Positions 14,264 through 64,000 of a DNA stretch of 64,000 bases are shown here, in pieces. Both the position numbers and the translations under genes were made by a program. Source of the stretch: an uncultured Gammaproteobacteria bacterium (GTDB lineage Bacteria > Pseudomonadota > Gammaproteobacteria > SZUA-229); assembly GCA_963759005.1 (NCBI GenBank), contig CAVWXQ010000014.1, forward strand, positions 23,655-87,654, written 5' to 3'. Under the pieces are notes generated by a model. It had not been told where the DNA came from and searched no databases. It was given only the letters and a program-made list of their open reading frames with translations. How positions within the stretch are numbered: position 1 is the stretch's first letter; the number at the start of each line of letters is the position of its first letter.

Positions 14264-14289
14264 CTAGCACAATCGAAGCAATGCGCCAG

Positions 14290-33124: not shown

Positions 33125-33238
33125 CAGGAAATAAAAAGTCGGTTACAAAACCACTAAGTTAAGCGCAGGAAAACCAGGTCAGCAATAGTCACTGTATCTA
33201 TTTAGTGCTGCAGTCTCATGAGGGAATGCTTATACGAG

Positions 33239-40276: not shown

Positions 40277-40564
40277 TTAAGGTAATGTTAATGCTTTTAT
40301 TAACTCATGTAGTGAGTTCCATGTAATTTCAACATCATCCTTGAACTCTTCCCATGTTTCATCACCAGCCTGTTTTAGTCGCTGAAGTTTTTTATGAGCG
40401 GCTTCTAGCTCCAGTTTCACTTCTTCGATTAACGTGTAGTACTCAAGCTGCAAATTGGTTTCTTCCTGTTCGGCTTTTTCCTTAAACGCCGCAAGCCTGG
40501 TTTTCCACTCATCAAGCTGTGCCTGCATATTCTTTTCATATACGTCTCTAATGCTCATATTCAT
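40277..40564 (-). CDS. small coiled-coil protein, hypothetical
   Basis: 95 aa, E/K/Q-rich heptad-like sequence. Confidence 0.3.
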   Translation of the reverse strand: MNMSIRDVYEKNMQAQLDEWKTRLAAFKEKAEQEETNLQLEYYTLIEEVKLELEAAHKKLQRLKQAGDETWEEFKDDVEITWNSLHELIKALTLP

Positions 40565-48714: not shown

Positions 48715-51700
48715 TTGTCAGCAGTTACACTTCTTATATCATTGGCCATGTACCTGGCATTGCTGTTCTGGATAGCGCGACTTGGCGATCGCCGCCGTTT
48801 TAATACTACCGGCTGGGTGCGCCACCCGCTAGTTTATACACTCGCCCTGGGTGTTTATTGCACTTCCTGGACGTTTTACGGCTTAGTTGGCACAGCCGCT
48901 TCTCGTGGCTGGTACTACCTGCCAATTCTTCTCGGACCGATACTTCTTTTTACTTTCGGTTATCCTCTATTACAGCGCATCGCCAGTGTTAGTCGCCAGG
49001 AAAACATTCATTCCATCGCTGATTTTATAACCTCGCGTTACGGAAAACGTCAGTCCGTGGCTGTAATCGTTACAGTTATCATGCTTGCTACTACCGTGCC
49101 GTATATTGCCCTGCAATTAAAAGCCGTCACCGATACACTGCTCTACAGCGTAGATAATATTGCCTTTGCCAGTCAGGACATGACCATGCTGGTTGCTGTC
49201 GCAATGATATTATTTACCCTGATTTTTGGTGCAAACCGACTTGATGTCTCCAGTTATCACTCTGGCATTATGGCGGCGATTGCTTTTGAATCACTGATCA
49301 AACTTTTTGCCTTAATTACAATAGCCGTATTTGCACTAACTCTTTCCGCCGGTTTCGATCCCAGTCAAATAAGTAATAATGCTAATGCTGTATTTCAACA
49401 ATCAACCCTCACGCCTTCTTTCTGGATTCTAACCTTCGTTTCAGCAGCGACAATTTTTTGCTTGCCGCGCATGTTCCAGATTACTTTTGTTGAATGTTTA
49501 AGTGAACAGCATCTCAAATTTGCGCGCCGTGGTTTCAGTCTTTATTTAATTGCGATAGCTACAGCTGTTTTCGTGATTTCCTGGGTAGGCAACCAGGTAC
49601 TCGCCAACACCGATGTTGCCAGCGACACTTACGTACTCGCTTTACCATTGAGTACAGATAATCAACTGCTAACGCTACTCGCATTTATCGGTGGTTTTTC
49701 TGCCGCAACAGCAATGATCATTGTGGCTTCACTTACTTTAAGCCAGATGCTGAGTAATGATGTGATCCTGCCATTATTAATCAGGCAACAGAAAAACCGC
49801 AGCCCTATTCCCGATTATTCACGTGCGCTTATCCTGACACGACGACTTACCGTTATTGCTGTCATTCTCATGGCATGGCTGTATCAACATAGCCTGGCTG
49901 AAAATGTTGCACTGACAGAGATCGGTCTTATCGCATTTGCTTTAGCCGTGCAGTTGGCACCAGCGATCATCTTCGGGCTTTACTGGCACCGCGGTAATGC
50001 CATGGGCGCCTTTGCCGGACTGGGCTCCGGCGTACTTATCTGGTTTATAACACTCATGCTTCCTCTGCTGAGTAATGCTGGATTTATTAGTCCAACATTA
50101 ATAACCCATGGTCTTTTTGGCCTGGATTTTTTACGACCCGACCATCTTTTTGGTCTCACCTTTAGTGATGCTTATACGCGTGGCGTGGTGTTAAGTATCA
50201 GCGTGAATGTAATTGCTTTTTACCTCGTGTCATCAATGGATATAACACGCCTCTCCGATAGAATTCAGGCGCTGGCTTTCGTCCACCGAAAACGTTCAGA
50301 ACAACTTCCAACCATCGATAACTTAAAGATTAACAAAACGGATTTAACTACGATGTTGACACAGTTCCTGGGCGCGTCCGCCACTGAACGATTACTAAAA
50401 AACGAACCAGGCCCAGAATTATTACTCGTTAGCTCCAAACTGCTCGACCATGCTGAACAGGCACTATCCGGCGTCGTCGGTGTTGCTTCGGCACGTGCAT
50501 TACTATCAAGTTTGAGCAGCGGTGAAAGTCTTGGGGTGGAAGATGTAGTCAATATATTTGAAGAGACTACGCGCACACTGCAATTTAACCAGGATATGCT
50601 TTTTGCTACCTTCGAAAGTATTTCATCAGCAATTAGCGTGGTTAATGCCGACTTAAAAATTGTAGCCTGGAACAAACGTTACGAACAAATGTTCAATTAC
50701 CCGGAAGGTATGTTACGTGTTGGTAGAGCGATAGAAGATTTAGTTAGATTCAATGCAGAGCGTGGCATGCTCGGAGCCGGCGCAATTGAAGCACAGGTGA
50801 ACACTCGTCTCGGGCATTTAACTGCAGGCAAACCCTATCGTGTGGTGAGAAATCATAATCAGGGCGTTATAGAAATCAAAGGCAGACCGCTACCTAATGG
50901 CGGTTATGTAACGACCTATGATGATATAAGCGAATTTGTAAACGCGCAGAGTGAACTGGAAAAAGTTAATCTCAGTCTCGAACGCCGTGTACGCGAAAGA
51001 ACAGAAGAAATTGAAAAGATCAATAAATCACTGCGCAAAGAAGTAGAAAAACACAATGTCACAGAAATTGAATTGATTAAAGCGAAATCGATTGCCGAAA
51101 AATCAAACGCCAGTAAAACTCAGTTTCTTGCCATCGCCAGTCATGATATTTTACAACCTCTAAATGCCGCCAACCTTTATGCCAGCGCACTACTGGAAAG
51201 GCCCGATTCCAATGACCCGAAACAAACCGCAAGTCTCCAGCATCTGCATGCTGCCATCTGTTCTGCCGAGCTAATCATTTCCAACTTACTGGAAATATCA
51301 CGGCTTGATACTGGCTCACTCAAACCGAAATTAAGCCGCTTTGCACTTAATGATGTTTTAGAACCACTGGTTCATGATTTTCGCGTGCAAACCAATGCCG
51401 ATGTTATTTTTCGCTACCAGCGCACTTCTTTGTGGACAGAATCCGACGCAAAATACCTGCGCCGCATCTTGCAAAATTTCTTTTCTAACGCGGTGAAATA
51501 TACCAGCAAAGGAAAAATTCTTATCGGTTGCTTGCGCCATGGTGAGCAAATAAAAATATGTGTTTACGATACCGGTCCCGGTATTTCCGAAACACATCAA
51601 CAACGCATTTTCGACGATTTTTACCGTGTGACAACAAATGTTGACGGCGCCGGACTAGGCCTGGGCATCGCATTACGCTTCTCTCATCTGCTTGGCCATC

Positions 51701-52194
51701 AGATAAATGTGCAATCCAGTGATAGCAAAGGCAGTTTGTTTTCACTATTAGTACCTTTGTGTGAAAAGCAAATCACACAAAAAAGTACATTACAAACAAG
51801 CAAAATAACTTCTGGATTAGAAAATCTCAACATCTTCTATGTTGATGACGAAGAAAATAATATCCACGCACTCGGCACCCTGATGAACAATTGGGGCTGC
51901 ACATTTTCTAGTGCAAATGATGTTGCAACCGCTGAATTATACGCAACAAAAAATCAAGCACCCGATGTACTTTTAATGGATTTTCAGCTGGACACTGATG
52001 TTAACGGCATACAGCTGGCAGATGCCTTGCGCAAACACTGGAAAAACATTCCTGTCTGTATAGTCTCCGCTGCACCGGATGAAGATTTATCAACACGCGT
52101 GACCAATCATGGATATGATTTTCTACGCAAACCAATAAAACCCGGTAAGTTACGCGCCTTATTAGAAAAGTATTTACAACGTAAAAAAGCCTGA
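48715..52194 (+). CDS. CrbS/CbrA-like hybrid sensor kinase: N-terminal solute-symporter (SLC5) domain, PAS, HisKA-HATPase, C-terminal REC
   Basis: 13-TM SSF-like N-terminus. H-box LAIASHDILQPL. G-boxes DTGPGI, GAGLGLGIA. REC VLLMDFQLD. Confidence 0.85.
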   Translation: MSAVTLLISLAMYLALLFWIARLGDRRRFNTTGWVRHPLVYTLALGVYCTSWTFYGLVGTAASRGWYYLPILLGPILLFTFGYPLLQRIASVSRQENIHSIADFITSRYGKRQSVAVIVTVIMLATTVPYIALQLKAVTDTLLYSVDNIAFASQDMTMLVAVAMILFTLIFGANRLDVSSYHSGIMAAIAFESLIKLFALITIAVFALTLSAGFDPSQISNNANAVFQQSTLTPSFWILTFVSAATIFCLPRMFQITFVECLSEQHLKFARRGFSLYLIAIATAVFVISWVGNQVLANTDVASDTYVLALPLSTDNQLLTLLAFIGGFSAATAMIIVASLTLSQMLSNDVILPLLIRQQKNRSPIPDYSRALILTRRLTVIAVILMAWLYQHSLAENVALTEIGLIAFALAVQLAPAIIFGLYWHRGNAMGAFAGLGSGVLIWFITLMLPLLSNAGFISPTLITHGLFGLDFLRPDHLFGLTFSDAYTRGVVLSISVNVIAFYLVSSMDITRLSDRIQALAFVHRKRSEQLPTIDNLKINKTDLTTMLTQFLGASATERLLKNEPGPELLLVSSKLLDHAEQALSGVVGVASARALLSSLSSGESLGVEDVVNIFEETTRTLQFNQDMLFATFESISSAISVVNADLKIVAWNKRYEQMFNYPEGMLRVGRAIEDLVRFNAERGMLGAGAIEAQVNTRLGHLTAGKPYRVVRNHNQGVIEIKGRPLPNGGYVTTYDDISEFVNAQSELEKVNLSLERRVRERTEEIEKINKSLRKEVEKHNVTEIELIKAKSIAEKSNASKTQFLAIASHDILQPLNAANLYASALLERPDSNDPKQTASLQHLHAAICSAELIISNLLEISRLDTGSLKPKLSRFALNDVLEPLVHDFRVQTNADVIFRYQRTSLWTESDAKYLRRILQNFFSNAVKYTSKGKILIGCLRHGEQIKICVYDTGPGISETHQQRIFDDFYRVTTNVDGAGLGLGIALRFSHLLGHQINVQSSDSKGSLFSLLVPLCEKQITQKSTLQTSKITSGLENLNIFYVDDEENNIHALGTLMNNWGCTFSSANDVATAELYATKNQAPDVLLMDFQLDTDVNGIQLADALRKHWKNIPVCIVSAAPDEDLSTRVTNHGYDFLRKPIKPGKLRALLEKYLQRKKA

Positions 52195-52343
52195 CTGTTG
52201 GGAATTGCACGAACAGGTGGAGGCTCATAAATTTAGCGCAACATCGAATAAGCAGCCAATTTTTCTCATCCACACATATTTCCCTGAAGTCTGCTTTGCT
52301 ATGTAAACGAGATGACGCATTACGTGTGATGGTAGCGTTTAAT

Positions 52344-53009
52344 TCAGGAGCCAGCCGAATTCGCATTAAGCGACATTTTGCTAAGCATGATGACTGCCTG
52401 GGTACGATTGCTTATACCAAGCTTACGAAAGATTGCTGTAATGTGCGCTTTGATTGTTGCTTCGGTAATACCCATTTCATAGCCAATCTGTTTGTTTAGC
52501 CAGCCCTCTCGCAGATAACAAAGCACGCGGTATTGTTGCGGTGTCAATGTTGCTATCTTCGCGGCGAGATCTTTCTCTTCGTCATTAACTGGCGTCAAAC
52601 TGTGTCTAAAATCTTCAGGCACCCAACGTCCGCCGTCAAGCATGGCGCTTATCGCTTGAAGAATGAGCTGTGGTGAACACGATTTAGGTATGTAGCCACT
52701 CGCCCCGTGTCCCATCGCGCGATTAATGGTATTACTGTCTTCGTCCGCAGAAATAATCGTAACCGGGATACTCGGGAATTTTTCACGCACCAAAATCAAA
52801 CCGAACAGATCTTGACTGCCCGGCATATGTAAATCCAGCAGCAACAAATCGGTTTCACTATTTTGTTCGAGCGCTTTTATCGTACTATCCAGATCCATTG
52901 ATTCCCCGACGATAGAATCCGGATAATGCCGCTTGATAACTTCAAGGATGGCATTACGGAACAAGGGGTGATCGTCTGCTACATGAAAATGATACATCGA
53001 GACACTCAT
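52344..53009 (-). CDS. NarL/FixJ-family response regulator (CrbR-like partner)
   Basis: VADDHPLFR, LLLLDLHMPG and K. LuxR HTH LTPQQYRVL...ITEATIKAHITAIFRKL. Confidence 0.8.
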   Translation of the reverse strand: MSVSMYHFHVADDHPLFRNAILEVIKRHYPDSIVGESMDLDSTIKALEQNSETDLLLLDLHMPGSQDLFGLILVREKFPSIPVTIISADEDSNTINRAMGHGASGYIPKSCSPQLILQAISAMLDGGRWVPEDFRHSLTPVNDEEKDLAAKIATLTPQQYRVLCYLREGWLNKQIGYEMGITEATIKAHITAIFRKLGISNRTQAVIMLSKMSLNANSAGS

Positions 53010-53266: not shown

Positions 53267-54442
53267 ATGAAATCTATCAATAAAAATATATTAAACGGGG
53301 GACTAGCAGGTGCGACCTTACTAGCAGCCGCATCAGTACACTCCGTCACAATTGGAACATTTGATAACACCACGGTAAAGATCGGCGGTTATGTCAAGCT
53401 GGATGCGATGTTGAGTGACTTCAGCGAAGGTCCAGTAGGTACTGGCATTGGCCGTGATTTTTATGTGCCGAGCATAACACCTGTTAACAGTAACAACACA
53501 GGCAGTGAAAACACCTACTTCGATATGCACGCCCGCCAGTCACGTTTTCATCTTGCAACTGACAGTATGGTCGGTGAGCATAAACTGAAAACTTATTTTG
53601 AAATGGACTTTATGGTCACACCAAATGGCGATGAGCGCATCAGCAACTCCTACTCACCGCGTATGCGTCATGCTTTTCTGACATATGATAAATGGCTATT
53701 CGGCCAGACCTGGTCGACTTTCCAGAACACGGACTCATTACCCGATTCAGTCGATTTTATCGGCAACACTGATGCCGGCATCTTCATCCGCCAGCCACAG
53801 GTTCGCTATACCAGGGGCCCATGGCAGTTCTCCATCGAAAACCCGGAAACGACTGTTACTGATGGCGGCCGGGTAGTTGCCGATGACAATGAGTGGCCTG
53901 ACTTCGTCGGACGTTACAACCTGAAGTCCGACAAGCTGTCACTGGCTGCTGCCGTGCTGTTACGCCAGTTAACTTATAACACTACTGGAACCGGTGGCAA
54001 CATTGACGATTCGGAGTCCGCGTACGGAATCAGTATCACTGGTAAGTTGATGCTGGGTAAAGACGATATCCGCTTTGGCATCAATACCGGCAGCGGCATG
54101 GGTCGCTACATCGGCCTTAACGTAGCCAACGGGGCTATAGTTGATGCCAACGGCAAGTTGGAAGCTATTGATTCCACCGGTTTGTTTGCTTCATACCGTC
54201 ATCTGTGGAACGCAAAATGGCGCAGCAATTTCATGTATTCAAGGATAGATATCGACAACAATACAACCCTTAGTGGTAACAACGCAACAAAAGCCACATA
54301 CAGTGCTCGCATAAACCTGTTCTACAGTGCAACGGATAAACTAACTTTTGGTGGTGAGTACGCCCATGCTAACCGGGAAATTGAATCCGGTAACGACGGC
54401 AATATGGATAGACTGCAGTTTATGGCTAAGCTGGCGTTCTAA
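53267..54442 (+). CDS. outer-membrane beta-barrel porin (unassigned family)
   Basis: Signal peptide. Alternating beta-strand pattern. C-terminal ...MAKLAF with terminal Phe. Confidence 0.5.
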   Translation: MKSINKNILNGGLAGATLLAAASVHSVTIGTFDNTTVKIGGYVKLDAMLSDFSEGPVGTGIGRDFYVPSITPVNSNNTGSENTYFDMHARQSRFHLATDSMVGEHKLKTYFEMDFMVTPNGDERISNSYSPRMRHAFLTYDKWLFGQTWSTFQNTDSLPDSVDFIGNTDAGIFIRQPQVRYTRGPWQFSIENPETTVTDGGRVVADDNEWPDFVGRYNLKSDKLSLAAAVLLRQLTYNTTGTGGNIDDSESAYGISITGKLMLGKDDIRFGINTGSGMGRYIGLNVANGAIVDANGKLEAIDSTGLFASYRHLWNAKWRSNFMYSRIDIDNNTTLSGNNATKATYSARINLFYSATDKLTFGGEYAHANREIESGNDGNMDRLQFMAKLAF

Positions 54443-54693
54443 ACAAACGTAAAAAAACTATACATACCGTTAAGCAAGGAGTCACTATATAAACAACCTG
54501 TTTACAACTGTTAAGCGAGTTTTTTAATACAGCATCATGTACCTGGTCGATGAACGCGTAACAGAAAACAGTGATAACGGTAAACATAGTCGCATACAGG
54601 CTAGCGAGAAGTATTCTTTCTAACTAGCCCTTTAGAAGATGTAATAATTTGCGGGAACCAGGCCTTTAGTAAACCTGGCTCCCGCACTTGGTG

Positions 54694-54775
54694 ATGAGAT
54701 CGCCCACGCTAACCGGAACTGGAATTCGGTGCCGACGGCAAATGGATAGCTTACAGCTCATGAAATATTGTGTTT
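54694..54775 (+). pseudogene. degenerate duplicate of the porin gene 3' end
   Basis: gatcgcccacgctaaccggaactggaattcggtgccgacggcaaatggatagcttacagctcatg parallels 54361-54430 (tacgcccatgctaaccgggaaattgaatccggtaacgacggcaatatggatagactgcagtttatg). Confidence 0.4.
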
Positions 54776-55130
54776 TATAGCTATAACAGGACAGAGACAA
54801 ATATTATCATTCTCTTTTTCAGGGGCGTAACCTAAAGGCTGCCCCTGTTTTTTTTCCTGTAAAAAATATAAAGCAAAGCAATCGACTCACGTACAGATAA
54901 ATCGAGAAAGCATCTTCTAATGAATATTTCTTAAGCTTTACAACTAACAAAGTCAGTATGAGCATTTCTTGACAAGCAGGTAGAAGAAGACAAGATCAAC
55001 AGCTTTCTTAGCACCACGCTGCCCATCCAATGCCGAAATAAACACTACCCACGTCATTGAGAACAAATCTGTGTTTCCATCTCAAACATTTGACTTTCTG
55101 CCAAGGCGTCCAGTGTACACATTGCATAGA

Positions 55131-55313
55131 CTGTATGACACTGCTGTCCCGTTAACAAAAAAGAAATTATCTAAACAGGCTGATGTAGCAGGCATTGACA
55201 AGGGTAGCTAATCCGATATGAATTGGGTCGTAGGAAGTCCAGAACTCGATGCGCGTCCATGCGGCAGTTGCAACGGATCGCCGACAGTTAACGGGACAGC
55301 AGTGACTGTATGA
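55131..55313. repeat. 18-bp inverted repeat pair (cactgctgtcccgttaac) with swapped ctgtatga modules, 130-bp spacer
   Basis: Left arm ctgtatga+cactgctgtcccgttaac. Right arm gttaacgggacagcagtg+actgtatga. Confidence 0.35.
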
Positions 55314-55467
55314 TTATTATTTTGAGCAGAAATATCATGACACAAAAGCCTTCCACTCAAAGTGAATAGTTTTAAACTAGCGTTCTATGACAATAAAAAA
55401 GCGGCAAGCAGATTTCTCCAGTTGCCGCATTCTATTCAGCTTATTTATTTAGGATTAATGTTTTTAA

Positions 55468-56904
55468 TTAAAGGAAAGCACCTGTATTATCGATAGCGTT
55501 TAGTTGCAAACCATCTGGACCAGTTTCACCTGTATCAGGTATCCATGGTGCAAGACATTGACGGTCTTTAACACAAGGATCGGTTAACGATTTTAAGAAC
55601 TCAACCAGATCGATCACATCATCATCGGTATAGGTAACATTTTGATGAACCCCTGCAACATTGTTAGCACGATTAGCTTCAAGCTGGTCCAGCGCAAACT
55701 GAGTATTTGTTTGCATATTTGAAAACTGTATATTTGCATTTGAATCTAATTGTGAATAATCGTAATTAGCAATAGCCTGTGCCGGATTCAACATGTGACG
55801 AACCATGTTCTCCAATGTGGTGTAAGCACCGGCATGTCCCCATGGGCCGGTAACTTCCACATTAAGTAATGTCGGTGTTCTGAAACGGTACATATCAGCC
55901 GCAACTTTACTTTCTCTGAAACGACCAAAATCATCATTGATCAATGTGCCATTATCATCACCTTTACCACGACCAATCTGGGGCGATGCCAGTACATGAT
56001 ATTGTTCATCGGTAAAGAAATCACCAGCGTGGCATGAGCTACAGTTCGCACCACCATCTTCAACTTTGCCAAAAAACATCATCGCACCACGTTTCGCAGA
56101 TTCACTAATCGCTGTAGCATTACCTTCTACATATGCTTTCCACGGAGAGTTTACAAAAACCTGTGAACGCTCATATTCGCCGATTGCTTCTGCAATGAGT
56201 GTATAAGTGATGGTAGTGGGTACACCAAAGGCAGTCTCGAATTCGGCAAGCCAATCAATATCTCCGGCCAATTTCAAAGCCAGTGCATCACGAATTTTAT
56301 CGTTAGTATTTTGAGCTGGCAGACTAAAACCATGCATTTCTTCAGGTGAGGTTACCGGAAATCGGGATTGCGCTGCCGCAAGCGTATCAGTTGCCGCATT
56401 CGGATCGGCAACATCAAAGGCTGAATCCGGTGTACGAATACCTATCCCATCATCACCATTTGCGCCCTCTGTTTTACCCAGGCTTTCCACCCTGCCATCA
56501 TGAAACAGCGCCTGATCCCACATTGCAATGTTAAACGTAGTCGGTGCATTTCTTGGCACGGTTGGACCACCATCAAATTCACCACCCACCGCATTAATAT
56601 CATGGAAACGTCCTGGACCTAGCAGGTCAGGATTTTCCGCACCAACACCAATCGATAATGATAATCCATCACCACCGCCTAATGATGGATGATGACAGGT
56701 CACGCATGCAGAGTCATCATCGCCACCCAGACCTTTAGTGAAAAACAGTTTCTTACCCAGCTGTGCTTTTGCGTCTGTAATAGCAGGAAGAACTCTGCCT
56801 GTGGCTGGATCGCCGGTTAATCCATATTCCGTTACCATCTGTAACAACTCAGCATTACTAACAGTAGCCTCAGGATTACTATTATCACATGCCGCCAGTA
56901 ACAA
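55468..56904 (-). CDS. MbnH/MauG-like di-heme cytochrome c peroxidase family enzyme (paralog 1), probable N-terminal frameshift
   Basis: CVTCHHP and CSSCHAG heme sites. FRTPTLLNVEVTGPWGHAG. Tail LKSLTDPCVKDRQC. The signal peptide MDRRHLLTLSIRIKL lies in another frame, followed by LLLAAC in this frame. Confidence 0.75.
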   Translation of the reverse strand: MLLAACDNSNPEATVSNAELLQMVTEYGLTGDPATGRVLPAITDAKAQLGKKLFFTKGLGGDDDSACVTCHHPSLGGGDGLSLSIGVGAENPDLLGPGRFHDINAVGGEFDGGPTVPRNAPTTFNIAMWDQALFHDGRVESLGKTEGANGDDGIGIRTPDSAFDVADPNAATDTLAAAQSRFPVTSPEEMHGFSLPAQNTNDKIRDALALKLAGDIDWLAEFETAFGVPTTITYTLIAEAIGEYERSQVFVNSPWKAYVEGNATAISESAKRGAMMFFGKVEDGGANCSSCHAGDFFTDEQYHVLASPQIGRGKGDDNGTLINDDFGRFRESKVAADMYRFRTPTLLNVEVTGPWGHAGAYTTLENMVRHMLNPAQAIANYDYSQLDSNANIQFSNMQTNTQFALDQLEANRANNVAGVHQNVTYTDDDVIDLVEFLKSLTDPCVKDRQCLAPWIPDTGETGPDGLQLNAIDNTGAFL

Positions 56905-57104
56905 ACAGCTTGATGCGGATGGACAACGTTAATAAATGACGCCTGTCCATTTTTCTCTTTTTACTTTTTTGCAACACACATATCTCCTTAACAACTATTA
57001 TTTTTAAAGTTCAACGAGGTAGCATGCAACAAGCGCGCCAGCCGTTCAAACTATAAAATTAAAATACTTACATGCATGCAAAGATTTATTTATGCGTGGT
57101 ATCA

Positions 57105-57135
57105 CACAGCTTGTGGAAATTCTTTACAGAATTGT
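57105..57135. promoter_or_regulatory. conserved upstream motif, copy 1 (also at 61459-61489)
   Basis: acacagcttgtggaaattctttacagaattg versus acacagcttgtagaattcttttacagaattt. Contains aattct-N4/5-agaatt inverted repeat. Confidence 0.4.
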
Positions 57136-57557
57136 TTGAATAAAAGACTTACATAACCGCACTAGTCTGTGTAATGCATATAATGGTTAACGCTTTTATA
57201 CTTGAACAACAACGGAAAGATAATTTGTTTGTTCATTGCTCCTTCTCCCCCGTTTTCTTCGTTGCCAGGTTCAGCATCATCAGCACTGGAAGCAGGATTA
57301 TTTTTGCGGCAAGCAGCAAGCTGCTAACCTCAAGCAATAAAAAAAGTCGGAACAACTTTTATAACTGGTGAATTGAACCGGTAATATTCTGTAATACTTT
57401 AGAAACTCCAGGTCATTGGGGTCAGTAATAAGTCTGTGTTTCAGTTTCCAGTTGCGATAAGTCTACAGCATCAAACCAGGTGTCATAATTTATTGCCAAA
57501 CTTACCGAACCCGTCGGGGTACTCGCCGATATCATCATTAACGCAGATAATAATAAA

Positions 57558-58181
57558 TTACGATTGTATTAATGTTGCACCCGTATCAATCAGAATCCTA
57601 CCGCCGCCACCGGCGCCTGCACCCAGTGTATAGCTACCTTCGATATAAACCGTTTTACCAATCATATCTGGCTCACCTGAACCTACAACAGGCAAATTAA
57701 TAGCATCGGCATCGGCAGCAAACAAATCAATATCAACCCCGCAGTAATCTGCTGCTGCAGGTGACATGCTGCCAATTGAAACAGGAACATTATCCGTTGC
57801 CAGCAAGTTGATAACGTAAGGCACACCGGTTGAGGTAGGTGTTGTTGTGGTGTGCGCATGCGCCTGTGGAAGAATAACATCCAGTAGCCCATCCAGTGCT
57901 GCAGAAAATGAAGCACCACATGTGGTTTCAATAGTTGTACTTGAAATAACCAGATAGGCTTTGGTCAGGGTAATAGAATGCCCCTCTGCAGTGACAAACA
58001 TTTTAGACCCAGCAGCCATAACTGCTGAATTTGCTGGCGAAGGCGCAGCACTCATGCTGACAGCTGTGGCGGTTGTAGCGCCATCAGAACTACTGCTTGA
58101 ACTGCAGGCTGATAAAACAACAGCAAGCAGGCTTATTGCCAGAATGTTAATGGCCGAAATATTAGTGGACCTGAAAATCAT
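57558..58181 (-). CDS. hypothetical lipoprotein
   Basis: Lipobox LSAC. Ser/Thr/Ala-rich. Last gene of the four-gene minus-strand operon. Confidence 0.3.
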   Translation of the reverse strand: MIFRSTNISAINILAISLLAVVLSACSSSSSSDGATTATAVSMSAAPSPANSAVMAAGSKMFVTAEGHSITLTKAYLVISSTTIETTCGASFSAALDGLLDVILPQAHAHTTTTPTSTGVPYVINLLATDNVPVSIGSMSPAAADYCGVDIDLFAADADAINLPVVGSGEPDMIGKTVYIEGSYTLGAGAGGGGRILIDTGATLIQS

Positions 58182-59070
58182 AAGTTATTCCTATGCTAAA
58201 AATGGTACCTTCTGTATGCTCACCATACAGTGCATCGATAGCAGGAAATTTAACTGTGGCATTCAGTAATAAATCCTGCACCATGGTGTAAATGAATCCT
58301 GGCGCAATAAAAATAATGGTGCCACCTGAATCCGGGTCATCCAGGCCGGAAAATGTGTCCCGCTTACTGCTTCTGCCTTCCAGACCTAAATAATATGCCA
58401 CACTGTGTTGCGAAGCATATTGCGCAGTTGCATTATATACCAGAGCATCTCCTGCCTGAAACTCCTGGTAACCTTCTGTTGCGACATGATAGGTCGCGCT
58501 GGTATAAAACAGATACGGATAATTATAATTGGCATACCAGGCACCTGCATTTAAAACTGTTGCGCCCTGGCCGGCCTGCACATCAAAATCCAGCGGAACA
58601 CCATTACTGTCAGTTTCTTCAGATGCAGTAGGTAATTTTAAACCGCCCAGAAAACCATACATATGTGTTTGCAAAAACTCTTTTTCCTGCATAAAGTTTT
58701 TAACTGTAATGGTGACATCACCCAGTGCCGTGACTTCTTCCTGAGTTAAATTAAATGATTCCAGCTGACGGTTAACATACGGAACATTCACCCCCAACAT
58801 TAATCGCGTGCTCGGTGCATAGGCCAGGTTTAATGAGACCCTGTTTTCATCAATGACTTTTTTATTAAAACCTTCACGCCCCAGTTCTTCACTGCGTGAC
58901 AAATAGTTTAATGACAGTCGCAGACGATTTTCATACGGTTTTTCTGCACCCATCAATGTCTGCGTGGGGTCACCAACCATACAGGTAGAGCAGGCCATTG
59001 CCACAGGTGCAGCTAAAAAACAGCATAAAAACAGAAGCGAATTTCTTACCATATTACAACCTAGGGACAC
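58162..59070 (-). CDS. outer-membrane beta-barrel protein (possibly transporter / MetA-pathway-like family)
   Basis: Signal peptide ...AAPVAMA. Beta-strand-rich. Overlaps neighbours by 10-20 nt, which suggests coupling. Confidence 0.35.
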   Translation of the reverse strand: MSLGCNMVRNSLLFLCCFLAAPVAMACSTCMVGDPTQTLMGAEKPYENRLRLSLNYLSRSEELGREGFNKKVIDENRVSLNLAYAPSTRLMLGVNVPYVNRQLESFNLTQEEVTALGDVTITVKNFMQEKEFLQTHMYGFLGGLKLPTASEETDSNGVPLDFDVQAGQGATVLNAGAWYANYNYPYLFYTSATYHVATEGYQEFQAGDALVYNATAQYASQHSVAYYLGLEGRSSKRDTFSGLDDPDSGGTIIFIAPGFIYTMVQDLLLNATVKFPAIDALYGEHTEGTIFSIGITYDFQVH

Positions 59071-60371
59071 ATTGCATGTTTCTGGATATTGCCGAAGGGA
59101 TCAGAGAGTTCATCCCGACAAACGAAGTCCCAGTCCGTCAAACTCTTGAAGAACTCGATGAGGTCAAGACGTTCATCAGCCGTGATGACGAAACCATTAA
59201 TAAAACCGCTCGTATTATTTGGACTCAGAGCACCATCACCCGCATTAGGATCAGGCGGTAAAATCAATCGTCCTCCCCGCGCATAGTGATCAATAACTTC
59301 ATCTAATGTTGCGATACTGCCATCGTGCATATAGGGCGCTGTCAGCTCGATATTTCTTAACGTCGGCGCACGGAACTTTCCTTCATCTTCAGGCAACAGG
59401 GTAAATTCCCTCAGGCCATGATTATTTTCTGGGTATAACCCATCTCCGATATCATCACCATTGCCATCAATATTATATAAAGCATTATTATGGAAATTGT
59501 TATGAGTGAATGTAGAACCCTCATGATCTACCGAATCACTGAAGTTGAATCCACCATGACAGTGAAAACATTCCAGTCTTTCACTAAAGAATAATTCCTT
59601 GCCTCGCTTCGCAGCATCAGACATGGTATTTGCTTCACCACGATTATCCTTATCGAATTCTGAGTCTCCGGAAATCATAATACTGCCAAACGCTGCAAAT
59701 GCCTTGACCACCGTCGACAGGGTTATCGGTTCGATTTCATCCGGGAAAGCATCAGCAAACATCTGCGGGTAGTCTGGTGCATTACCCACAAACATTGTGC
59801 CGGCGTAGTCAGCGTTTGAGGGAGACTTCAACCTGCCGAGGATCTCATCAACATGCCCTGCCCAGCCAAGTTCTATCGGATCTTCATTCAATACCACTGC
59901 CAGCGCCTGGTCATGCAGGTTCGCGATCTGGGGATTCGCCCAGTTCATCGTGCTGTTGTAAACCACATTGGTCATACTCATCGCGTTGCGCGCATGCACA
60001 TCAGCCTGCGAACCTACCGATACCGTCAGACCATCGGTGAATGCCTTTTCCTGTAGATGGCAGTCAGCACAAGATTGCGTCTGGTTGAATGACATATTGC
60101 GATCATAAAACAGCAGGTGACCCAGCTCGACCTTCTCCATGCTTAACGGGTTTTCTTCCGATTCTCTCGGTAGCGGAAAACCGCAGGGTAGCTCCACTGG
60201 CGCTCCGGAGCCACATTCACCATACAGCGCACTGGAAACAACTGGTGATTCCAGACCAGGTACCGGTGTTTCTGTATCAGACCCAGAGCAACTCGCCAGC
60301 AAGAAGCTGGCGATGATGCTTACAGGTAATATGGTTAAAGCTTTAGACGTTACAACTTGCATAATAATCAC
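59061..60371 (-). CDS. MbnH-like di-heme cytochrome c peroxidase family enzyme (paralog 2)
   Basis: CADCHLQ and CFHCHGG. FRAPTLRNIELTAPYMHDGS. Tail FKSLTDWDFVCRDE. Lipobox LASC. Confidence 0.8.
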   Translation of the reverse strand: MIIMQVVTSKALTILPVSIIASFLLASCSGSDTETPVPGLESPVVSSALYGECGSGAPVELPCGFPLPRESEENPLSMEKVELGHLLFYDRNMSFNQTQSCADCHLQEKAFTDGLTVSVGSQADVHARNAMSMTNVVYNSTMNWANPQIANLHDQALAVVLNEDPIELGWAGHVDEILGRLKSPSNADYAGTMFVGNAPDYPQMFADAFPDEIEPITLSTVVKAFAAFGSIMISGDSEFDKDNRGEANTMSDAAKRGKELFFSERLECFHCHGGFNFSDSVDHEGSTFTHNNFHNNALYNIDGNGDDIGDGLYPENNHGLREFTLLPEDEGKFRAPTLRNIELTAPYMHDGSIATLDEVIDHYARGGRLILPPDPNAGDGALSPNNTSGFINGFVITADERLDLIEFFKSLTDWDFVCRDELSDPFGNIQKHAMCP

Positions 60372-60412
60372 CGTATTTTAACCAATAATTCCGAGATTGC
60401 TAACATTGGCTA

Positions 60413-61336
60413 TCACTGTTTGCTGAACAATCTCTGGCCAGCGGTATATGTTGAAGCTACACCTGTCGCACTGCGGCCGTATGTGTAATCCAGACCGAGG
60501 CGCGGCATGATCTCCTCACAGTCATCATCATCAATAAATGACATGCAACCAGGTTTAGCACCATGATTAGTAGTCACATCATTACCCTCAAAGACACGTG
60601 CCGGATCAACTGCAATCACATCATTCTCAACATCAAAGTTAGCGATACATACTTCGAATGTGTTTGGCACGGTACAGGCTGAATCTGGTGGTGCTGTATT
60701 AGATGCACCCGGGCAGCCCTGCGCACCAAGATGTAAGACGAATGGGTTTGCAACACCGGTCGGATCACCTACACCATCTATGCGGATATACTTGTAACCG
60801 ATCTTCCAGGCCCAAAACATGCTTGAATCATTCAATGGAGACTCTACGGCATTTACATCGAGGTGGTTTTTATCTTCAGGCACACCCACGGTAAAACAGA
60901 CTTCAGCATCAGCTAAATCGACAGTATCAGGTACAGTGACCTTACCAGCCATCACTTTATTTGTTTCAGCAGTACCTGTGGCACAACCATCTTCAAAATC
61001 CAGTAAGGTAACATTATCTCTCTGCCAGACACCATCCTGAGTCAGCTCAATAGCATGATCATCACCGGTTAATGCATCATGTATATGCGCATTATGCACA
61101 TACATTCTGAAATCATTCACTTTATAATCATTACCGCCAGTGCCTACACCGGTATGTGTTTGTCCACAGGTAAAGTCCTGTCCATTTACCTGGGCAGCAA
61201 AACTAATTGCTACATCTTCAGCAAGGTCTGGTGCTGGTGCTGGTGCTAGTGCCACATCATCATTTGAACATGCAGTTAGCGCTATCGAAGAAGCGATTAC
61301 TAACGTTAAAGGTAACTGGTTATTACAAAATTTCAT
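60413..61336 (-). CDS. MbnP-like Cys-rich periplasmic lipoprotein (partner of MbnH-like enzyme)
   Basis: Lipobox LTAC. Eight further Cys and conserved Trp. Sits immediately 5' of the di-heme enzyme, which is the mbnP-mbnH order as I remember it. Confidence 0.5.
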   Translation of the reverse strand: MKFCNNQLPLTLVIASSIALTACSNDDVALAPAPAPDLAEDVAISFAAQVNGQDFTCGQTHTGVGTGGNDYKVNDFRMYVHNAHIHDALTGDDHAIELTQDGVWQRDNVTLLDFEDGCATGTAETNKVMAGKVTVPDTVDLADAEVCFTVGVPEDKNHLDVNAVESPLNDSSMFWAWKIGYKYIRIDGVGDPTGVANPFVLHLGAQGCPGASNTAPPDSACTVPNTFEVCIANFDVENDVIAVDPARVFEGNDVTTNHGAKPGCMSFIDDDDCEEIMPRLGLDYTYGRSATGVASTYTAGQRLFSKQ

Positions 61337-61458
61337 ATTTTCTCCTAGTTTTATTATTTAATTCAGTTAAGAGAGTCTTAAGCAACTAACGTGCCAATTA
61401 TCATCAATAGAATATCAATGACTTACGGAATCTTTTGATTTAAAAAGTGAGTCAAATA

Positions 61459-61489
61459 ACACAGCTTGTAGAATTCTTTTACAGAATTT
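61459..61489. promoter_or_regulatory. conserved upstream motif, copy 2
   Basis: See 57105-57135. Lies 123 nt upstream of the MbnP-like start. Confidence 0.4.
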
Positions 61490-61686
61490 AATAAGTTTGG
61501 TGATGTGATCGGGCAATGCTTGCTGATTCTTAGTACGATGATAAATTAAAGAGACAGGTCGACATGTGACTGAGGCAGGAGATAGGTCAGATATTCGTGA
61601 ACTGATTTTTTAGGTCACAAATTGAATACCATTAACCTTTATGTATAATAAATATAAATGGTAACGGGACAAAGGAGACTAAGGAT

Positions 61687-62719
61687 ATGAAACTACTATC
61701 CAGGCTATTTGACTTCACAGACGTGAAGAGCAGCAATACTGAATCACCTGCTAAAACAGACATTCCAGCCAATGTACTCAACGAGGCCATAGAGCGTGTA
61801 GTAGACGGCACTGATCCCAACATACGGTATTTTCCCGGTTATAAAAAAATTCTTAACAATAGCGTTGCCACTTCTTTGGCTTATATCAGCAATCTGGTCG
61901 ACACCATTCCCGGTCCGATTTTTATCAGCAGCAAAACCTTTAATACCGACCCACAGCTTAAAGCCTATTTTGCTAGCCATGGCAGATATTCAGAATATTT
62001 TTAGTGGCAGCACGGAACTGAGAGACTTCTTTGAAGTACCAGAAAACTGCAATCTGCGCGAAGCCTGTGCACTACTATGTATGAACGAGACAGAAAAACC
62101 CGTGCAGGGAATGGAGCTGCATGGAAATATTATTCAGCGTGATGTCTTGCAAACTACACTGCATTTTTCTGGACATAAGATTTTGTCACCGGCCTCAAGT
62201 GAGACCGAAGTACGCAAAGGCATTAAACAATGTATTTTTGATGCCTTGATCACCCACGTACTGCAACAAATTGTTGAACTTAAACAACAGAAACAGGGAT
62301 TGGAAGTTCAGCGCAGTATACTGAATTCAAGACTGAAAACAAGACAGTCACAGCCTGGTGGTCTAAGCAGCCTGCTGGCCAGTGCAACTGAAGCAAAACG
62401 ATCAGTAAATATTGAACAGCAAATTGCAGAAAATGAAAAAAAGCTCGAAAAACTACCAGCCAGCTGGAATGCTCCACGGTTTTATCTGGAAATTATCAAA
62501 CACACCTTTACCCACCCTGAGAACTTTATACATATCAAAGCGAAGTCTTTCAATATAACTAAAACGGGAATAGTGACCAGTGATGACTCCTCACAGTCAG
62601 TGAACAACATCCATTTTCATGAAGTTTTAATTGCTAATGTGCTAGAACGGGTCATCGCCATTGTGCGTTATCCCCGTAGCGAAATGCTGCCCAGGAAGGC
62701 GTTTAACCTGAAACAGTAA
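61687..62719 (+). CDS. hypothetical protein, frameshifted at about 61985
   Basis: ORFs 61687..62004 and 61865..62719 overlap in different frames (...ASHGRYSEYF* versus MADIQNIFSG...). RBS aggagac before the ATG at 61687. Confidence 0.3.
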
Positions 62720-62895
62720 AAACATAATTACATCATAAAACGAGAACCACTTACCCTGGTCATTAAATATAGGCGTCTATTATTGACCTTTTTTACCTGT
62801 CAGCCACAATCGTGAACGTCTGTTTGAGGGGTTCTAAGTTGAGTTTTACCTGTAGCGCCATATCAGGCATGAACTCAATAACCCATGCCAGCCCT

Positions 62896-63933
62896 TTAGA
62901 AGGTATATTGCGCGCCCAAAGTAAATACAAGATCGGTTTCCAGTTGCGGGCCGTCTAGCTTCTGATAAGCAGGCACGCCTGCTTCGGCAGCAAGCCGCAG
63001 GCTGGTAAATCCGGGTGGAACAAAGTTGATACCTATAAGCGCATCAACACGTGTACCTCCACGGAGGTTCGGGTCGGCAGTCGGTACCATAGCTGGCGCC
63101 AACATCAGCTTGTTATCGCTGCCGTCAATGTTATCCCAATCCAGTGCTTTCAATCGAAAAGAAAAGCTGGTTGATTTTGCCACCTGTTTTGCTGCCCACA
63201 CTGTCGCATTTAACCTGTTGCCTAATGTGTAACCATTATCATTTGTACCTGTTCTAAAGGTATACAGTCCTTGTGCACCCCATGACCAGTTTTCATAGGT
63301 CTGCACGTACGTCAGACCGGGTGTGACGTCCCAGGTACCTGAGCCCAGTTGCATTGGGTAAGGCAAGTGCACATCATCTGGACCCGTAGTGTTATCTCTT
63401 TCGTCAATCGATCCGGTCGGTACATTAACCGCAAAGTTAAACAGGAAATCAGATCCTGGTTTAGCGAACAGTCCATAGGTCGCAGCCAGTTTTACATCAC
63501 CGATACCATCGGACTCAGTGGTAAAATTTGAACCATTCATATTCACAAGATGATCCATCGAAATGGAAGTATATGGAACCATCGCCATCAACGTAAGTTT
63601 ATCTGATGGCGCAAACATGACGCCAATCATGTGCATATCCATGTCCATCGATAACGGGCTAACCATATAACCAGGTAGAGGCACACTAACACTGTCGGTG
63701 TCCGTTCGGTTACCATCCATCTCCATAGACATGAAGCGGTAACTCAGCATGAGTTCACCTTTTCGCATCAGGTGATCGCCCATGACGCCGATCGGTGCAT
63801 GACTATCTGGCCTGGTATGGTCATGACCAGAGTGATCTGCATGGCTCTCATGCCCGGCAGCCTGAGCGGATTGTATCGATAATAGAGACAGCGCAGTCAG
63901 TAATATCGGCGTGTGTTTTTGAGATGAGCTCAT
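62896..63933 (-). CDS. outer-membrane beta-barrel (transporter / MetA-pathway-like family) with His-rich N-terminus
   Basis: Signal peptide. AGHESHADHSGHDHTRPDSHAP plus Met-rich MDMDMHM. C-terminal ...GAQYTF. Confidence 0.45.
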   Translation of the reverse strand: MSSSQKHTPILLTALSLLSIQSAQAAGHESHADHSGHDHTRPDSHAPIGVMGDHLMRKGELMLSYRFMSMEMDGNRTDTDSVSVPLPGYMVSPLSMDMDMHMIGVMFAPSDKLTLMAMVPYTSISMDHLVNMNGSNFTTESDGIGDVKLAATYGLFAKPGSDFLFNFAVNVPTGSIDERDNTTGPDDVHLPYPMQLGSGTWDVTPGLTYVQTYENWSWGAQGLYTFRTGTNDNGYTLGNRLNATVWAAKQVAKSTSFSFRLKALDWDNIDGSDNKLMLAPAMVPTADPNLRGGTRVDALIGINFVPPGFTSLRLAAEAGVPAYQKLDGPQLETDLVFTLGAQYTF

Positions 63934-64000
63934 AGTATTGTCTTTATATTGTTAATTTATGTGATGACTTTTAGTTTGAAAATCATTCCTGGTAAAAATT

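Follow-up and report, generated by a model that had tools for sequence, protein, structure and literature searches.

Three transcription units on the minus strand of a contig from an uncultured gammaproteobacterium (the window, a stretch of 64,000 nucleotides) combine an MbnP/MbnH pair with outer-membrane barrels and another di-heme enzyme, which raises the question of what these envelope proteins do together and how their genes are controlled. The first-pass annotation had described them as a periplasmic copper island with two MbnH-like enzymes, two barrels and a candidate shared operator.

Gene content of the three units

All the open reading frames lie where they had been placed, and the gene identities and folds were established computationally (Table 1). 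The Cys-rich lipoprotein that opens the operon had been called MbnP-like, and it passes the NCBIfam cut-off for that family (TIGR04052, 236 bits vs 140; PF20243, 114 bits). The Trp that is converted to kynurenine in MbnP is present as a WxW motif (W175/W177) aligned with that of 7L6G (E 7.6e-30), and the other ligand-type residues, family-invariant in the alignment, are H202, M173 and a conserved Cys. The second gene encodes a true MbnH (TIGR04039, 413.9 bits vs a cut-off of 362.85), with the CADCH, CFHCH and PTLRN motifs that had been reported, and matches the MbnH of M. trichosporium (6E1C) with an E of 1.6e-87. The 10-20-nt overlaps described for this operon hold for the next two junctions (10 and 20 nt), whereas mbnP and mbnH are 41 nt apart.

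Table 1. Genes and promoter elements of the three units (window positions, all on the minus strand)
Feature	Position	Description
Solo di-heme gene	55468..56977 (-)	CCP/MauG-family di-heme lipoprotein; CVTCH, CSSCH
Sigma-54 -24/-12 promoter, solo di-heme gene	57026..57040 (-)	TGGCGCGCTTGTTGC
IHF-like site, solo di-heme gene	57058..57070 (-)	TAAGTATTTTAAT; 1 mismatch to consensus; ends 17 nt upstream of TGGC
UAS, solo di-heme gene	57093..57133 (-)	site I TGTAAAGAATTTCCACA (57128-57112), site II TGTGTGATACCACGCA (57108-57093)
Fourth cassette gene	57359..58181 (-)	lipoprotein, unannotated family, predicted MbnP-like fold
barrel302	58162..59070 (-)	cassette outer-membrane channel; 12-stranded; probable start ATG at 59052
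mbnH	59061..60371 (-)	MauG-like di-heme enzyme; lipoprotein (LASC); CADCH, CFHCH
mbnP	60413..61336 (-)	MbnP-family copper-binding lipoprotein; lipobox LTAC
Sigma-54 -24/-12 promoter, mbnP operon	61382..61396 (-)	TGGCACGTTAGTTGC
IHF-like site, mbnP operon	61413..61425 (-)	TAAGTCATTGATA; ends 16 nt upstream of TGGC
UAS, mbnP operon	61448..61488 (-)	AATTC + site I TGTAAAAGAATTCTACA (61483-61467) + site II TGTGTTATTTGACTCA (61463-61448)
barrel345	62896..63933 (-)	His-rich COG4313/PF13557 outer-membrane barrel

The enzyme that stands alone (55468-56904) had been taken for a second MbnH-like paralog, an assignment rejected by the TIGR04039 model (125.6 bits, under the cut-off of 362.85). With 115.9 bits for PF03150 and 187.7 bits for TIGR03981 (under the cut-off of 340), it reads as a generic MauG/CCP-type di-heme lipoprotein. 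In an alignment with the peroxidase bCcP (1NML), its M371 falls at residue 275, the position of the axial haem ligand in canonical peroxidases.

Two genes are frameshifted in this assembly. In the solo di-heme gene, a frameshift near 56918 puts the signal peptide (MLQKSKKRKMDRRHLLTLSI) and the rest of the protein (ASSCLLLAAC...) in different frames, leaving a 478-aa ORF that has lost its signal peptide, and the real start is at about 56974-56977 (TTG or GTG after AGGAGA). In the last gene of the operon, a frameshift near 57566-57570 truncates the ORF, which is why it was called as 207 aa; the rest of the protein lies in another frame, down to a stop at 57359-57361, and the product would have about 265 aa, its relatives having 263-266 aa. 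No annotated function was found for this family, in which an AHAH loop, two Cys and a YDTWF motif are conserved; hhalign against MbnP gives a probability of 31%, over the N-terminus only, and the predicted resemblance to MbnP is at the level of the fold only.

Both barrels had been assigned to the outer membrane, which is borne out by PF13557 for barrel345 (34.9 bits vs a cut-off of 22) and by the AF2/Foldseek barrel fold for barrel302. The former carries HESHADHSGHDHTRPDSH and MDMDMHM as described, and its signal peptide is cleaved between AQA and AG, leaving the mature N-terminus GHESHADHSGHDHTRPDSH; it is 25% identical to barrel302. The mature N-terminus of the latter, C-S-T-C-M-V-G-D-P-T (with a CxxC), is near-invariant in the family alignment, PF13557 is present in some of its homologs, and its AF2 model (pLDDT 85.7) is matched by FapF (E 2e-13) and by the COG4313 channel 4RL8 (E 1.6e-10), with TM values of 0.67-0.74. 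A barrel of this type is linked to MbnP/MbnH in the cultured Flagellatimonas centrodinii, and the barrel and the MbnP-fold lipoprotein also occur as a pair without mbnPH (L027, L033, L050 and L062).

Like Pput2725 (4RL8) and FapF (5O65/5O67), barrel302 is predicted to have 12 strands, with an N-terminal segment before strand 1. In Pput2725, this segment occludes the barrel lumen, and COG4313 channels have so far been tied to hydrophobic substrates (PMC4493636). Unlike these two proteins, the present barrels have conserved N-terminal metal-ligand clusters (CSTCM, CCGGGS or HESHADHSGHDHTRPDSH), and their genes sit in operons for metal proteins, whereas the known family members serve hydrophobic compounds or amyloid export.

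A shared enhancer-like element and predicted sigma-54 promoters

The mbnP operon and the solo di-heme gene do have a motif in common, 123 nt before the ATG of mbnP and 200 nt before the TTG at 56904. The IUPAC 31-mer in which it had been written finds no match at up to 3 mismatches; the actual minus-strand copies, at 57104-57133 and 61459-61488, are 30 nt long and agree without gaps at 26 of 30 positions, with two identical 11-mers 8 nt apart. The window has no third copy. With the solo di-heme gene starting at about 56974-56977, its motif lies about 127 nt upstream, nearly as for mbnP.

In the mbnP operon, the 30-mer spans only 61459-61488 of a larger arrangement, in which two tandem dyads (TGTA-N9-TACA and TGTGT-N6-ACACA, with centres about 19.5 bp apart in an element of 41 bp) are followed by an IHF-like site (consensus YAANNNNTTGATW) and then by a sigma-54 -24/-12 promoter. 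The sigma-54 element, TGGCAYG-N4-TTGC, sits 62-64 nt downstream of the dyads; three matches are seen in the window vs 0.59 expected, and two of the three lie 62-63 nt downstream of the motif copies, on the correct strand. Transcription of the mbnP operon is predicted to start near 61370, about 34 nt ahead of the ATG. The promoter of barrel345 would lie just past the window edge, to judge from locus L024 (85.6% nucleotide identity), where a UAS, an IHF-like site and TGGCAT-N..-CTGT are found directly upstream of the stretch homologous to 63934-64000; at L012, as at L024, the -12 of the barrel345 promoter is non-canonical (CTGT).

The motif had been proposed as a shared operator, a role that its spacing fits poorly: because it stands at a fixed 62-64 nt upstream of the sigma-54 element, from which an IHF-like site separates it, it is most likely the UAS (enhancer) of an unlinked activator of the NtrC family. 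The NifA UAS, for instance, is TGT-N10-ACA and is combined with IHF, and NtrC has tandem sites. The present element resembles such classical enhancers in its -24 GG and -12 GC, its IHF-like site and its tandem TGT...ACA dyads about 100 nt upstream; to our knowledge, the sequences and spacings of TGTA-N9-TACA and TGTGT-N6-ACACA match no known activator site. Neither the window nor any of about 60 related loci showed a sigma-54 activator gene (GAFTGA/PF00158), so that the activator would be unlinked to the units. The three units would constitute one sigma-54-dependent regulon, in which a putative enhancer-binding protein encoded elsewhere would bind the two dyads and, through IHF-assisted looping, contact the sigma-54 polymerase, switching the units on together.

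Conservation of the promoter and its target genes in relatives

Related MAGs and metagenomes yielded 54 non-identical promoters of the same architecture, with the UAS consensus tTC-TGTAAA-N6-C-tACA-N3-TGTGT-.ATatc-ACaCa. The right arm of site II, the IHF-like site and TGGCAYG formed no part of the search pattern, and all three are conserved; the pattern permitted a gap of 48-78 between UAS and TGGC, and the gap peaks at 62-64 nt. The IHF-like site is present with at most one mismatch in 48/54 promoters and ends 16-18 nt before TGGC in 44/54. In 440 kb of DNA, the 14-base UAS core occurs 62 times (0.003 expected), each time with a sigma-54-type element downstream. Scanning genomes with the composite pattern gave 15 loci (about 2 chance matches expected by simple arithmetic), 14 of them in MAGs of uncultured Gammaproteobacteria or Thiotrichaceae with gaps of 62-66, and scanning metagenomes gave 38, with the full architecture in 37. 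Six promoters found by MbnP homology and not by the pattern (L001, L003-L007) have the same UAS, spacing and -24/-12, despite an MbnP identity of only 65-79%; a sigma-54 element upstream of mbnP is kept there and at L013, L015, L016, L057 and L058. Homologous promoters precede orthologs of the solo di-heme gene (L014, L018, L020, L024, L038, L048, L052, L055), and the same UAS and sigma-54 element precede barrel345 homologs (L009, L027, L029, L037, L043, L056).

The promoter always stands before genes of a small number of kinds: the mbnPH cassettes, genes for His-rich barrels, the solo di-heme gene and, in relatives, an operon for a Met/His-rich lipoprotein, a PF13557 barrel, a thioredoxin-like lipoprotein (AhpC/TSA-Redoxin family, WCPIC) and a cytochrome c, as well as a TBDT-ExbB-ExbD-TonB operon. 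A 331-aa barrel passes PF13557, and the Met-rich motifs MMPAM, MVMPIMHM and VMMMP are seen among the proteins. This target set makes the shared motif functionally coherent as well as real, and the idea of an island also holds, in that the three units occupy a variable slot where close relatives carry alternative cassettes. The regulon also takes in multihaem cytochromes and a beta-propeller protein.

Probable metal acquisition and its alternatives

The whole is likely best explained as a sigma-54 regulon of envelope modules for the acquisition of a metal, probably copper, under limitation; the promoter architecture with its conservation, the set of target genes and the exchange of cassettes are, like the gene identities and folds, shown computationally, whereas we infer that an activator binds, what signal it answers to, which metal is handled and which way it is moved. 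The role in acquisition is suggested because the same promoter drives, in relatives, the operons for the Met/His-rich lipoprotein and for the TonB receptor with ExbB, ExbD and TonB, and the specificity for copper by MbnP homology and ligand-type residues. MbnH would oxidise the Trp of WxW to kynurenine, making periplasmic MbnP copper-competent, while the other modules would be 12-stranded channels of the COG4313/FapF type with metal-ligand N-termini (CxxC-Met or His-rich), the cryptic MbnP-fold lipoprotein and the separate di-heme peroxidase-like lipoprotein. The complete copper-acquisition route that had been proposed is thus a reasonable reading of the genes and not a demonstrated fact.

The closest known system is the MbnP/MbnH "metallo-mystery pair" of Methylosinus trichosporium OB3b (7L6G, 6E1C), which shares with the window the adjacency and order of the genes, the passing of TIGR04052/TIGR04039, the WxW, His, Met and Cys positions and the two CxxCH. 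Copper is bound by MbnP through His, Met and the kynurenine of WxW (PMC11951088). The window operon differs from the OB3b pair by its COG4313-type barrel, its MbnP-fold lipoprotein and its sigma-54 promoter with a dedicated enhancer, and by having no methanobactin operon, adjacent MbnT-type TonB receptor or MbnI/MbnR, the settings in which such pairs had been described. MopE/SACCP of Methylococcus capsulatus and CorA/CorB of Methylomicrobium album also join a di-heme MauG-like enzyme to a kynurenine-using copper-binder of the cell surface or periplasm and serve, by analogy, as the functional model for acquisition; the partner proteins differ in fold and sequence, their hosts are methanotrophs, and neither an outer-membrane barrel partner nor sigma-54 control is mentioned in the accounts consulted.

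It is less probable, though worth weighing, that the same regulation serves metal tolerance or envelope redox defence, with barrels and lipoproteins sequestering or exporting excess metal and di-heme enzymes removing peroxide. The N-terminal His/Met-rich barrel resembles the PcoB/CopB resistance proteins, the solo enzyme has kept a Met opposite residue 275 of 1NML, and thioredoxin-like proteins and cytochromes c are under the same promoter. His-, Met- and Cys-rich outer-membrane proteins are known in copper resistance too, which counts against acquisition. The CorSR system of the deltaproteobacterium M. xanthus, whose CorR is the sole documented copper-responsive sigma-54 activator that we found, sets a precedent for such control and governs tolerance genes, not uptake (PMC3707914). 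What speaks against tolerance is that a TonB-dependent receptor and its ExbB, ExbD and TonB, an energy-coupled import system, are under the same promoter, and that efflux pumps, P-type ATPases and multicopper oxidases are all absent among the targets seen. Elsewhere, MbnP/MbnH are tied to copper-uptake loci and MbnT importers, and copper represses the analogous MopE and CorA genes (PMC3621798).

That the MbnP-like proteins do not handle copper, and that the regulon serves another metal such as iron, zinc or nickel, or else a peptide or hydrophobic compound of the sort typical of COG4313/FapF channels, is rather improbable. Hydrophobic molecules are the substrates associated with COG4313 channels, FapF is involved in secreting polypeptides, His-rich stretches bind zinc and nickel as well, and both the fourth-gene family, with no annotated function, and the multihaem cytochromes and beta-propeller protein would suit such a role; on the other side, MbnP passes an equivalog-level model of a copper protein and keeps the WxW, His and Met positions, and CxxC and Met-rich motifs are typical of Cu(I) ligands. 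Finally, it is very improbable that a metal sensor (CsoR-, CueR- or Fur-like) shuts ordinary promoters at metal sufficiency, since, despite an operator-like dyad symmetry and a Fur-box-like sequence in the L001 intergenic region (though nearer the divergent CCP gene), the motif is some 80-120 nt ahead of where transcription is predicted to start and not over a promoter, its distance to the -24/-12 is fixed in the 54 promoters with the IHF-like site in between, sigma-70-like hexamers are unenriched in the region (21 seen vs 22.4 expected), no CsoR, CueR or sigma/anti-sigma regulator and no gene for a metal-sensing repressor is found nearby, and sigma-54 promoters require an activator.

On the preferred reading, a sigma-54 regulon for metal acquisition, the motif would define a conserved regulon, probably for the acquisition of copper, whose gene cassettes can be exchanged among uncultured Gammaproteobacteria of sediments.

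Probable enhancer and sigma-54 promoters

The ORF positions of the first-pass annotation are correct in the window, and its gene calls, mostly right, were joined to the proposal of a 31-bp operator shared by the two di-heme transcription units. Two copies of a 30-nt motif do exist, although the 31-mer as it was written in IUPAC code has no match in the window with up to three mismatches, the copies being on the opposite strand and internally offset. The operator reading was replaced: the 30-mer is the left three-quarters of a 41-bp enhancer (UAS) that stands at a fixed spacing from a sigma-54 -24/-12 element. The two elements read TGGCAC-N5-TTGC and TGGCGC-N5-TTGC. The window has three matches to the pattern TGGC[AG]C-N5-TTGC (0.59 expected). 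Two of them follow the motif copies at a distance of 62-63 nt and in the correct orientation. The third has no enhancer copy beside it and precedes, by about 100 nt, the gene of a LuxR-type response regulator.

Features of the window, with positions and strands
Feature	Position	Strand	Remarks
mbnP	60413-61336	-	cassette
mbnH	59061-60371	-	cassette
barrel302 gene	58162-59070	-	cassette
Fourth-gene lipoprotein	57359-58181	-	cassette
Solo di-heme gene	55468-56977		ORF called 55468-56904
barrel345 gene	62896-63933		His-rich barrel
30-nt motif copies	57104-57133, 61459-61488	-	only two in window
-24/-12 element TGGCACGTTAGTTGC	61396-61382	-	upstream of mbnP
-24/-12 element TGGCGCGCTTGTTGC	57040-57026	-	upstream of solo di-heme gene
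Third -24/-12 match TGGCACATATATTGC	14632-14646	+	
LuxR-type response regulator	14746-15408		
462-aa response regulator	19341-20729		
Best sigma-70-like match of region	61622-61649		
Gene divergent from mbnP	61687-62719	+	
Frameshift	57566-57570		cassette lipoprotein; apparent extra C
Frameshift	about 56918		solo di-heme signal peptide; apparent extra C
Frameshift	about 61865-62004		orf105/orf284
Possible further split genes	46528-48260, 9889-11981	-	
Sodium:solute symporter, split	47295-48260 and 46528-47244		
Tract downstream of solo gene	54443-55467		
MITE-like copies	14022-14266, 40022-40279, 21900-22318, 33237-33347		75-93% identity
Neighbouring genes	30225-32375	-	
Neighbouring genes	48715-53009, 53267-54442	+	

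MbnP homologs were traced to their contigs and the upstream intergenic DNA was compared: at MbnP identities of 65-79% this DNA has diverged, and TGTAAA...TGTGT, the 62-64 nt spacing and TGGC-N7-TTGC persist. A composite pattern (TGTAAA-N6-C-N-AC-N4-TGTGT-N{48,78}-TGGC-N7-TTGC) was scanned in two collections. With one genome per species, it returned 15 loci against about 2 expected chance hits, 14 of them in MAGs of uncultured Gammaproteobacteria or Thiotrichaceae with a gap of 62-66, and metagenomes yielded 38 loci, of which 37 have the complete architecture. Beyond the window, the architecture recurs upstream of specific gene types, in 54 promoters.

The consensus of these 54 non-identical promoters is tTC-TGTAAA-.aa.tt-C-tACA-.g.-TGTGT-.ATatc-ACaCa, composed of site I (TGTA-N9-TACA, arms perfect in 40/54) and site II (TGTGT-N6-ACACA, arms perfect in 31/54 and with one mismatch in 16/54), whose right arm is conserved though absent from the scan pattern. 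Two further elements are conserved that the pattern did not contain. One is an IHF-like site (YAANNNNTTGAWW), which 48 of the 54 promoters possess and whose end is 16-18 nt from TGGC in 44 of the 54; the other is the extended TGGCAyG, giving a -24/-12 consensus of TGGCAyGtttnTTGCt. The gap between enhancer and TGGC peaks at 62-64, although the pattern permitted 48-78. Over 440 kb scanned there are 62 UAS cores, where 0.003 would be expected by chance, and every one is followed by a sigma-54-type element. With dyads upstream and an IHF-like site between dyads and promoter, the layout is, as far as sequence goes, that of a textbook enhancer-dependent sigma-54 promoter, and the units very probably carry sigma-54 promoters with an enhancer. 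The possibility that the motif stems from a repeat or a mobile element was rejected, since its occurrences are confined to the upstream regions of specific genes and are shared between genomes. Neither sigma-70 promoters nor intrinsic terminators are enriched in the region, no Rfam element was found in 54000-64000 and no tRNA within the window.

No -24/-12 element is visible in the 67 nt between the barrel345 start and the window edge. In L024, a related locus (85.6% nucleotide identity), the 70 nt homologous to this stretch are immediately preceded by the UAS, the IHF-like site and TGGCAT-N..-CTGT, so that the barrel345 promoter of the window presumably lies just past position 64000. Upstream of the barrel345 orthologs of L024 and of a second relative, L012, the enhancer, IHF-like site and TGGCAT are kept and the -12 reads CTGT, not TTGC, a departure from the canonical -12 that both relatives conserve. 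In another related locus (L001), a Fur-box-like sequence (GAATGATAATGATTCTCATT, about 7245-7275) lies upstream of the enhancer, between mbnP and a divergent gene for a 366-aa CCP_MauG protein, which hints at an iron input to the neighbouring di-heme gene there.

The activator was sought by its signatures. GAFTGA, ESELFGH and GTGKE are absent from the six frames of the window and of L001-L022, GAFTGA and ESELFGH from L024-L061, and PF00158 was found neither among the large ORFs of the 64-kb window (Pfam) nor in the related loci; the 462-aa response regulator of the window contains only a receiver domain. From these searches we infer an activator unlinked to the window and to the related loci. 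CorR of M. xanthus is a sigma-54 activator able to respond to copper (PMC3707914).

Regulon content and locus structure

Taking the promoters of both scans together, the types of downstream gene are few: mbnP-mbnH-barrel-lipoprotein cassettes, orthologs of the solo di-heme gene, orthologs of the His-rich barrel, a barrel302-type barrel with its lipoprotein but without mbnPH, a beta-propeller-like protein, a multihaem cytochrome, a TonB-dependent receptor with ExbB, ExbD and TonB (Pfam-confirmed), and an operon of a Met/His-rich lipoprotein of about 540 aa (MMPAM, MVMPIMHMVSHEH, VMMMP) and three further genes. These three encode a PF13557 barrel starting CCGGGS, a thioredoxin-like lipoprotein of the AhpC/TSA-Redoxin family (WCPIC) and a cytochrome c.

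Two relatives differ in the segment that separates the solo gene from the His-rich barrel. L034, in which the promoter and divergent-gene flank are 90.7% and the solo gene 97% identical to the window in nucleotides, has the Met/His-rich lipoprotein operon where the window has the mbnPH cassette, and in L024 the His-rich barrel is followed directly by the solo gene, with no cassette between. Shared flanks and promoter are 81-97% identical (L034 against 55452-62766, L024 against 55392-63993). The contents of these two loci identify the segment as a variable slot and, judged by these alignments, alternative cassettes exchange at one locus under the same promoter. The conserved gene divergent from mbnP, whose intact product has about 343 aa, is also found beside this promoter in L034 and has no Pfam or NCBIfam match.

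Three single-base frameshifts occur in about 8.5 kb of the window, one of them in orf105/orf284, which is a single intact gene of about 343 aa in L034; a split mbnP is also found in a related MAG locus (L016). The three look like assembly errors rather than pseudogenes. Elsewhere in the window, ORFs that adjoin or overlap on one strand point to other split genes, among them a sodium:solute symporter. The window also holds a dispersed MITE-like element of about 245 bp with perfect terminal inverted repeats of about 22 bp (AGCCCGGATATTTCATAGGAA...), which is present at both ends of the L034 contig and is unrelated to the enhancer motif. The neighbouring genes, none with the enhancer motif, include an MtrC/MtrF-like multihaem cytochrome, a DcaP-like outer-membrane protein, and a sensor kinase with a fused solute-symporter-like domain together with an ErdR-type response regulator.

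Proteins of the cassette and its neighbours

The MbnP and MbnH calls are upheld by profile searches, mbnP scoring 236.2 bits on TIGR04052 (NCBIfam cut-off 140) and 114.2 bits on PF20243 (Pfam cut-off 27), and mbnH, which begins 41 nt downstream, 413.9 bits on TIGR04039 (cut-off 362.85). The conserved Trp expected in MbnP is in place, W175-A-W177 being aligned in register with WNW of the MbnP structure 7L6G. The 37 MbnP homologs compared all share W175, W177, H202 and five Cys, and nearly all share M173, with H202 and M173 as candidate copper ligands; the review PMC11951088 describes copper binding by MbnP through His, Met, solvent and a kynurenine formed from the WxW Trp. CADCH and CFHCH are the two CxxCH motifs of MbnH, whose match to the solved MbnH 6E1C has an E value of 1.6e-87, and the mbnP-mbnH pairing is kept in all relatives examined.

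The solo gene had been taken for a second MbnH, a label that does not hold: the ORF scores 125.6 bits on TIGR04039 (cut-off 362.85), its top NCBIfam match, TIGR03981, is also under the cut-off (187.7 bits against 340), and no MbnP-type gene adjoins it. Both di-heme proteins match PF03150 (Pfam), and the solo ORF is a member of this CCP_MauG family only. Its relatives start with a lipoprotein signal (M..RQLLxLSIASxCLLxxAC) that is found upstream of the window ORF in another frame, indicating a frameshift near 56918 and a true start at about 56974-56977, so that about 127 nt separate the enhancer and the start codon, compared with 123 nt for mbnP. Met371 of the enzyme is aligned with residue 275 of the 1NML peroxidase, the residue that in canonical peroxidases provides the axial Met ligand. 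MbnH has instead a Tyr about 11 residues past the PYMHDGS motif, as has 6E1C at the equal place, a position matched to that of the solo Met by distance from this motif and not by direct alignment. This hints at a peroxidase-like rather than a MauG-like enzyme. Downstream of the solo gene, a tract of about 1 kb contains no ORF of 60 aa or more (40% GC), and 266 nt of it resemble positions 8438-8694 of the related locus L046 (72% identity).

The fourth-gene lipoprotein belongs to a family of at least 655 clusters at 50% identity that has no Pfam or NCBIfam model and whose predicted fold is similar to 7L6G. Neither PF20243 nor TIGR04052 matches any of 10 members, the WxW motif is absent, and conservation falls on H106, W228 and two Cys. 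Kinship with MbnP at the sequence level was considered and rejected (hhalign probability 31%), so that the likeness is claimed at the level of fold only.

The description of barrel345 as an outer-membrane barrel is confirmed by PF13557 (34.9 bits, gathering score 22). Barrel302 and the fourth-gene lipoprotein, called in the window as a 207-aa ORF, have no Pfam match; PF13557 is precomputed in five barrel302 homologs, and the two barrels share 25% identity (E 9e-6). The AF2 model of barrel302 is a 12-stranded barrel (pLDDT 85.7) that matches FapF and the COG4313 channel 4RL8 with TM 0.67-0.74 (Foldseek). In the solved COG4313 channel, the lumen is plugged by the first ~14 residues (PMC4493636), and by analogy the N-terminus of barrel302, whose first 47 residues are modelled at low confidence, would be inserted as a plug. 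The mature start C-S-T-C-M-x-G-D-P-T is nearly invariant in the family, and all three barrel types of the regulon have Cys, His or Met clusters in their N-terminal segment. The barrel-lipoprotein pair stands without mbnPH in three related loci (L027, L033 and L050) and likewise in a distant genome, with a barrel 34% identical that keeps an A-C-x-x-C-x-x-G-D-P-T start. In the cultured Flagellatimonas centrodinii, the barrel adjoins MbnP and a CCP_MauG gene; no sigma-54 element was found in this locus, and sigma-54 control is therefore clade-specific.

Probable role in metal acquisition and a possible route across the outer membrane

On balance, the regulon appears to serve metal acquisition, probably of copper. 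This role is favoured by the TonB import operon among its targets, by the identity of MbnP and MbnH, by the ligand-rich channels and lipoproteins, and by the MbnP analogs MopE and CorA, which are repressed by copper (PMC3621798). A regulon for tolerance or redox defence is less likely, and one for another substrate is unlikely.

Within the metal-acquisition reading, a more far-reaching proposal, possible but doubtful, is that copper crosses the outer membrane without TonB, by means of COG4313-type channels. By analogy with the solved channel, the lumen plug may be a metal-ligand segment (CxxC-Met, CC or poly-His), and the channels may pass metal to periplasmic MbnP-fold lipoproteins, including the widespread unannotated family, which are possibly matured by MbnH or the solo di-heme enzymes. 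The set may be built of exchangeable cassettes at one locus and turned on by a new, putative metal-responsive sigma-54 activator recognising TGTA-N9-TACA / TGTGT-N6-ACACA. Each component belongs to a known class (the MbnPH system, COG4313 channels, a sigma-54 regulon), and it is the metal and the signal that we infer.

MbnP/MbnH pairs outside methanobactin operons are common and poorly understood. A well-defined enhancer and sigma-54 promoter, found in 54 promoters and common to five or more types of operon, gives them a clear regulatory handle, making the regulon, and hence its physiological role, directly testable, and the linkage in Flagellatimonas centrodinii offers a genetic entry point in a cultured organism. 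A COG4313-type channel with a conserved CxxC start is an uncharacterised partner now tied to MbnP/MbnH, and a second is the large family of unannotated lipoproteins whose predicted fold resembles that of MbnP. If the barrels conduct copper, the COG4313/FapF class would gain a function new to it, and copper a TonB-independent route of entry.
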